Sequence record: AF419419.1
Reading direction: 5' to 3' (one strand)
DNA from: a phage
Length of the DNA: 285 nucleotides
Below, piece after piece: positions 1 to 285 of this stretch. Numbering within the stretch: the stretch's first letter is position 1; each line of letters begins with the position of its first letter. The notes beneath the pieces are model-generated. The model saw only the letters and a list, made by a program, of their open reading frames with translations, had not been told where the DNA came from and made no database searches. Position numbers and translations under genes: made by a program.

Positions 1-285
1 ATGGCTATGTCTAACATGACTTACAACAACGTTTTCGACCACGCTTACGAAATGCTGAAAGAAAACATCCGTTATGATAACATCCGTGACACTGATGACC
101 TGCACGATGCTATTCACATGGCTGCCGATAATGCAGTTCCGCACTACTACGCTGACATCTTTAGCGTAATGGCAAGTGAGGGCATTGATCTTGAGTTCGA
201 AGACTCTGGTCTGATGTCTGACACCAAGGACGTAATCCGCATCCTGCAAGTGCGTATCTATGAGCAATTAACGATTGATCTCTGG
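1..285 (+). CDS. ocr: Ocr anti-restriction protein (T7 gene 0.3 product; DNA mimic that inhibits type I restriction-modification enzymes); 3'-partial, first 95 codons, CDS continues beyond the window
   Basis: Seen in sequence: ATG at 1-3 and an uninterrupted frame-1 ORF to position 285; frame 2 stops at 17-19 (TGA) and frame 3 at 11-13 (TAA); the minus strand is interrupted by multiple stops. The translation matches the N-terminal ~95 residues of T7 Ocr as I recall them ([25 protein letters not shown]...IDLW). Composition is strongly acidic (13 Asp + 6 Glu versus 2 Lys + 4 Arg in 95 residues), as expected for a DNA-phosphate mimic. Codon usage (CGT, CTG, GAC, AAC) fits a highly expressed early coliphage gene. 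No alignment was run. Confidence 0.95.

Follow-up and report, generated by a model that had tools for sequence, protein, structure and literature searches.

Origin and predicted effect of a D27N allele in a segment of the T7 anti-restriction gene ocr

The ocr segment and its five differences from T7

The window, by which we mean the whole 285-nucleotide stretch of DNA that was analyzed, is on its + strand a single open frame from base 1 (95 codons, ATG through Trp95). It comprises codons 1–95 of T7 gene 0.3, the gene for the DNA-mimic anti-restriction protein Ocr, and the remaining 22 codons, with the acidic C-terminal tail, and the stop codon lie outside it. In a megablast search against phage records the best match was wild-type T7, at 98.2% identity over the full window length. 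The translated protein matched the Pfam family PF08684 (“DNA mimic ocr”) with 192.2 bits against a cut-off of 25, residues 3–95 corresponding to profile positions 1–93 of 101, and 92 of its 95 residues were identical to those of the Ocr chains in PDB entries 1s7z and 2y7c (E = 5e-58). The sole other open reading frames in the window are two of 31 codons, with no support for either, and no RNA element was matched in Rfam at E <= 1 on either strand of the window.

An AF2 model of the window protein (mean pLDDT 89.7) was all-helical, with helices at residues 8–26, 31–45, 50–57, and 78–94 and loops at 27–30 and 58–77, that is, a four-helix layout (A–D) with acidic loops 1 and 2. With T7 gp0.3 Ocr (OCR_BPT7; 1S7Z; PF08684) the window shares its start codon, its predicted arrangement of four helices, and the residues of the dimer interface, and the two agree without gaps at 280 of the 285 bases and at 92 of the 95 residues; what sets the window apart is D27N, P73S, A84V, and two silent changes. 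The hydrophobic dimer-interface residues F54, V78, and L82 (ORF numbering) are all intact and are conserved in 118 of 120 homologues. The window’s 95 residues have a marked acidic excess, with 19 Asp + Glu versus 6 Lys + Arg (20 versus 6 in the T7 counterpart). The published minimum for Ocr is at least 14 negative charges, at least three of them in the “green” arm region (PMC4872106), and the charge of the window protein is well above that minimum despite the one charge that has been lost.

There are exactly five base differences between the window and T7 (1.75%), all of them G:C>A:T transitions, three missense and two silent. The features of the window are as follows:

1–285, + strand: ocr codons 1–95, with 98.2% identity, ungapped, to NC_001604 925–1209, annotated as gene 0.3
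79–81, + strand: codon 27, AAC (Asn), GAC (Asp) in T7; G79A gives D27N (mature D26N), from the ungapped alignment
189, + strand: C189T, silent, Asp63 GAC>GAT, from comparison with T7; ATTGACCT becomes ATTGATCT, with a new GATC at 187–190
217–219, + strand: codon 73, TCT (Ser), CCT (Pro) in T7; C217T gives P73S (mature P72S), in loop 2
250–252, + strand: codon 84, GTG (Val), GCG (Ala) in T7; C251T gives A84V (mature A83V), in helix D
279, + strand: C279T, silent, Asp93 GAC>GAT, in the second copy of the 8-mer ATTGACCT, with a new GATC at 277–280

The change at codon 27 had been proposed earlier as a possible D27N substitution relative to T7, removing one DNA-mimic carboxylate. In frame 1 of the + strand the window reads R-Y-D-N-I-R-D around this codon, and pairwise alignment to NC_001604 gave AAC in the window and GAC in the reference. 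The Asp that the proposal ascribed to T7 was therefore right, T7 itself does not have AAC at this codon, and the PDB Ocr chains (1s7z, 2y7c, and nine further entries) all have Asp there. At the level of the alignment, the Asp-to-Asn change at codon 27 is confirmed as a real difference from the T7 reference. Asp27, counted from Met1 of the ORF, is D26 in the mature-protein numbering used by the Dryden laboratory, and the acidic residues at ORF positions 13, 17, 21, 26, 27, 30, 32, 33, and 36 correspond one-to-one to the published D12, E16, E20, D25, D26, D29, D31, D32, and D35. In the AF2 model, residue 27 is the first after helix A (8–26), where the short acidic loop 1 begins. In work of 2002, Walkinshaw reportedly fitted 12 Ocr carboxylates to DNA phosphates. 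That residue 27 belongs to the DNA-mimic charge surface, as the original prediction had it, is borne out by the inclusion of both D25 and D26 among the acidic residues neutralised in the engineered mutants Mut1 and Mut2 (PMC3439906). These two residues sit in the part of Ocr that is treated as the counterpart of the sequence-specific arms in the target of EcoKI (PMC3439906) and in acidic loop 1 (PMC4872106). The description of a variant allele likewise stood, as T7 has GAC and AAC on a T7 background was absent from all of the collections that we searched. What had been omitted is the context: G79A belongs to a set of exactly five differences, every one of them G:C>A:T.

Those searches covered DNA, protein, and literature. 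An exact 21-mer with the codon-27 allele had 0 matches in IMG/VR, JGI metagenomes, and GTDB genomes, and exact 22-mers with the P73S and A84V alleles had 0 matches in IMG/VR. None of the seven combinations of D27N, P73S, and A84V, placed on full-length T7 Ocr, was present among ~15 billion proteins, in a look-up that found the wild type on 248 contigs and that assumed the T7 C-terminus, which the window protein may not share. The window had no megablast match in plasmids or in E. coli genomes. The nearest non-T7 phage record among the matches listed (a spread sample drawn from 176) was 93% identical, and, since none of the phage records listed was closer to the window than wild-type T7, none of them has any of the five changes on a clean T7 background. 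No paper was found in a literature search for D27N, P73S, A84V, P72S, or A83V together with Ocr.

Two observations on the database records were made in passing. In many deposited T7-like genomes the annotation of gene 0.3 is wrong, the product being called “protein kinase”, “receptor binding protein kinase”, or “hypothetical protein”. A T7-like ocr, 91% identical, is present in MT350293 (EFA-2), the record of an Enterococcus phage, and this points to a mislabelled host or to contamination.

Predicted effect of the missense changes on Ocr

The substitution at codon 27 has a close counterpart in engineered forms of Ocr. Roberts et al. 2012 (PMC3439906) used a plasmid, pOcrD12N/D26N, and the multi-site mutants Mut1 (D12N, E16Q, E20Q, D25N, D26N) and Mut2 (D25C, D26N, D29N, D31N, D32N, D35N). 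Mut1 and Mut2 behaved as wild type in anti-restriction, anti-modification, restriction alleviation, growth, and in-vitro nuclease inhibition, and their binding to M.EcoKI was too tight to fall within the range of ITC (PMC3439906). The wild-type affinity, roughly 50 pM, is itself beyond what ITC can resolve. The same work found that no effect could be observed for many of the single and double mutants, that ~16 carboxylates per monomer had to be neutralised before affinity dropped to the level of DNA, and that the arm regions that mimic specific half-sites contribute little, the critical block being amino acids 59–91 (PMC3439906).

The D26N of D12N/D26N, Mut1, and Mut2 (Roberts et al. 2012; Stephanou et al. 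2009) is identical to D27N in ORF numbering, and the change from Asp to Asn was likewise made there to remove one DNA-mimic carboxylate. The engineered mutants differ in that D26N was combined with one to five other neutralisations and expressed from a plasmid, whereas in the window it is the sole charge change and is accompanied by P72S and A83V, which are absent from those studies. The published data on D26N-containing mutants come from over-expression plasmids and EcoKI, not from phage infection, BREX, PARIS, or RNAP. No report of D26N as a single mutant was found, in a search that excluded the 2009 BBRC study of single and double mutants.

Comparison with natural homologues pointed in the same direction. 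At column 27 of 120 homologue cluster representatives, Asp was present in 95, Ala in 12, Glu in four, Asn in three, Gln in two, and Gly and His in one each. The loop-1 segment (residues 26–33) had three to five acidic residues in 116 of the 120, and the window has four. The three Asn-bearing homologues (P0093, the “DNA mimic protein” of Proteus phage 309; P0115; and P0119) share a Y/C-D-N motif at the end of helix A, and an uncharged residue at position 27 appears from these proteins to be tolerated in nature. However, they are 55–67% identical to the window, and their Asn is a product of deep divergence, not of a point change in T7.

Ocr also binds the BREX protein BrxX/PglX as well as RNA polymerase, and the PARIS defence system senses it. 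Residue 27 is absent from the published Ocr–BrxX contact lists, from the RNAP–Ocr paper, and from the description of the PARIS AriA–Ocr interaction, and the PARIS-relevant residues F54 and L82 are unchanged in the window. Because the multi-site mutants were active, as assayed from plasmids with EcoKI, the phenotype of D27N is expected to be that of the wild type, with M.EcoKI binding altered a few-fold at most. The earlier view that function was probably retained is thus in keeping with the match of the D26N-containing Mut1 and Mut2 to wild type and with the general lack of observable effects in single and double mutants.

Among the three missense changes, the evidence of harmlessness is most direct for D27N. 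Published data cover P73S less than they do D27N. P73S directly precedes Asp74 (mature D73), the one residue of the critical block to which Roberts et al. 2012 (PMC3439906) gave particular importance, and in the 120 homologue representatives column 73 was Pro in 111 and Ser in four, the close homologues P0008 and P0014 among them. A84V adjoins Gln83, a named BrxX contact, and is two residues from Leu82, which is both a PARIS-escape and a dimer-interface residue. Column 84 was Ala in 114 representatives and Val in four, close relatives included, with three of the Val-bearing homologues (P0019, P0036, and P0059) identical to the window at 78–86 of 95 residues. Since P73S and A84V both lie within amino acids 59–91, the whole allele could differ in its effect from D26N alone. 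Overall, the D27N/P73S/A84V allele most likely still encodes a working Ocr.

Base-change spectrum and mutagenised T7 lines

For a view of natural divergence we took 17 Teseptimavirus ocr loci in IMG/VR, T7 itself among them, and compared the other 16 with T7. These 16 relatives had 19–40 differences from T7 in the window segment, three to nine of them missense, and 137 of the 388 differences (35%) were G:C>A:T. The probability that five of five changes would be G:C>A:T is 0.0055 under this natural spectrum and 9e-5 under uniform random substitution. As far as five events allow comparison, the missense share in the window (three of five) is close to the 62% of nonsynonymous changes for random G:C>A:T hits, versus ~15–20% in the natural relatives. 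Asp>Asn is the commonest missense class that G:C>A:T changes can produce in the window (14 of 83, from ten GAC and four GAT codons), and, as the commonest missense product in an Asp-rich gene, D27N would be an expected by-product of such changes. Among the window’s five derived bases, the silent 189T was the only one found in the 17 loci (in two of them, one of which, L016, has the same ATTGATCT).

A spectrum of this kind has precedent in the mutagenised T7 isolates of Bull and Molineux, K, K115, P, and P82 (AY264775–AY264778; wild type, AY264774). Within the segment that corresponds to the window, K and K115 have five changes (D13N, N22 silent, A41T, D74N, and T75 silent) and P and P82 have two, and in all four isolates the changes there are exclusively G:C>A:T. 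Over 37.7 kb of the K115 genome there are 416 substitutions, of which 88% are G:C>A:T; the mean is 3.1 substitutions per 285 nt, and stretches of that length contain at least five in 19% of cases. G:C>A:T is known to dominate after mutagenesis of T7 with nitrosoguanidine or hydroxylamine (PMC6042481).

The window resembles these lines in having a T7 backbone, substitutions at a level of ~1%, an overwhelming preponderance of G:C>A:T, and Asp>Asn within ocr. It differs from them in that no mutated site is common to the window and K, K115, P, or P82. No deposited line identical to the window was found, and the window shares no site with those four or with GU071091 and MZ375267. As it has no site in common with the deposited lines, the window would represent a different lineage or would not be from those experiments.

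Several features of the deposited T7 sequences are worth recording in their own right. The Asp>Asn changes in the ocr of K and K115 (AY264775, AY264776), D13N and D74N (mature D73), are at window-equivalent positions 37 and 220, and they show how readily ocr accumulates losses of DNA-mimic carboxylates when T7 is passaged in the laboratory. Deposited mutant T7 clones (MZ375267; protein P0122, 18 contigs) have F54L in Ocr, at window-equivalent position 162. The T7 stock GU071091 has C190A (L64I) in ocr, a transversion that is unlike any change in the window.

The sequence context of the mutated sites was also considered as an identifier of the mutagen and was rejected. In the window, three of the five sites have a G 5′ to the mutated G, versus a background of 39% for a 5′ purine, and the known mutagenised lines have two of seven in the window segment; context does not discriminate.

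We also noted that the two silent changes fall one in each copy of the 8-mer ATTGACCT (Ile-Asp-Leu; 184–191 and 274–281), each of which becomes ATTGATCT. T7 has no GATC in the window segment and the window gains two; the creation of GATC is limited to the two silent changes. The whole T7 genome has only six GATC sites versus ~155 expected. The chance that at least two of five random G:C>A:T hits would create GATC in the window is ~0.013. K115 has gone from six GATC sites to 21, about twice our rough expectation of eight gains for that genome, and a context preference of the mutagen may explain the coincidence. Phage ϕA1122 naturally carries 189T and so has the first of the window’s two GATC sites. 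G79A creates no new EcoKI, EcoBI, EcoAI, EcoR124I, BREX, Dcm, or type III site.

Origin of the allele and its meaning

We hypothesize that the window is laboratory-T7 ocr in which D27N is an unselected by-product of G:C>A:T mutagenesis, with essentially no functional effect, and we regard this as the probable explanation. The mutagenesis would have acted on a laboratory T7 lineage through an agent that alkylates or deaminates bases (nitrosoguanidine or hydroxylamine, for example) or through some comparable process. G79A takes away one of the 34 carboxylates that each monomer has, at the point where helix A reaches its C-terminal end and loop 1 begins. The binding of Ocr depends on bulk charge and shape mimicry with large redundancy, and the arm that bears D26 adds little on its own. 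When set against a mutagenised lineage, the window has a G:C>A:T share of five of five, versus 88% in K115 and 35% in the natural relatives, and a substitution density of 1.75% versus ~1%, a signature that rests on five events in 285 bases. The identity of the gene, the five differences and their spectrum, the absence of the missense alleles on a T7 background from the collections searched, and the published phenotypes of D26N-containing mutants are observations; a mutagenic origin and neutrality of the triple-missense allele are what we infer.

It is unlikely, though it deserves weighing, that the differences are an artefact in a T7 sequence, produced by cytosine-deamination damage, by a low-coverage consensus or single-read error, or by deliberate or in-silico alteration. 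C>T and G>A are the exact products of template cytosine deamination, the window begins precisely at the ATG and has no database twin, and the presence of both silent changes in the same 8-mer could reflect a context-dependent error. However, an error rate of 1.75% would be far above that of consensus sequences, and the frame has stayed open, with no stop codon made although four of the 134 possible G:C>A:T changes in the window would have given one. The same spectrum and density are also documented in real mutagenised T7 genomes, and uniform in-silico substitution is excluded by the probability given above (P = 9e-5). An origin in the D/N-E/Q “pocr” selection library of Kanwar 2016 was rejected, as every acidic residue had been neutralised in the gene on which that library was based; in codons 1–95 the window retains 19 of the 20 acidic residues of T7, and it is 98.2% identical to wild-type T7 DNA.

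Natural divergence and adaptive change are less likely origins than mutagenesis. Natural polymorphism would imply a wild T7-like phage ~98% identical to T7, in which Asn27 is a standing ocr allele, and we consider this improbable. In its favor, each missense state does occur singly in homologues (Asn27 in the three named above, Ser73 in four, and Val84 in four), ϕA1122 has 189T, and spontaneous mutation is itself biased toward G:C>A:T. Yet the nearest non-T7 record among the matches listed is only 93% identical. The natural relatives have many differences from T7 that are mostly silent and only about one-third G:C>A:T, and the window is distinct from them in both spectrum and missense share (P ~0.005 for five of five G:C>A:T and ~0.04 for three of five missense). 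The close relatives share no derived allele with the window except the silent 189T, the exact missense-allele 21/22-mers are absent from IMG/VR and that of codon 27 from JGI metagenomes and GTDB as well, and the homologues with Asn27 have only 55–67% identity to the window. Recombination with a natural relative was rejected on the same observation, that among the five derived bases the relatives show only 189T.

Selection is a very improbable cause, whether it acted on D27N alone or with P73S and A84V, with the altered charge of Ocr shifting its target range, for example by evasion of Ocr-sensing abortive infection (PARIS) while restriction inhibition is kept. There is just as slight a chance that all three changes were selected together, such that charge loss in the arm and the changes in loop 2 and helix D retune the binding or triggering of type I R-M, BREX, PARIS, and RNA polymerase. 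PARIS AriA does recognise Ocr partly via its negative surface, single missense escape alleles that retain EcoKI inhibition exist (F54V), and three of the five changes are missense; but the known escape positions, F54 and L82, belong to the hydrophobic dimer interface and have not changed in the window, one charge in 34 is a negligible electrostatic change, three of five missense matches the neutral G:C>A:T prediction (62%), and residue 27 is named in no published contact list that we found. If the allele had been selected, it would bear on the trade-off of a DNA mimic between evasion of restriction and detection by systems such as PARIS, but none of our observations favors selection.

Under the mutagenic origin that we favor, the meaning of the allele is more modest. 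The gene, its mechanism, and the exact D26N substitution have already been studied, and the allele is a private and very probably neutral variant that carries little weight for the biology of Ocr. The exclusively G:C>A:T spectrum marks the source of the window as a T7 derivative, probably mutagenised, or else as a sequence that has been damaged or edited, rather than as a natural phage new to science. Variants called in this source should not be taken as natural diversity of Ocr.
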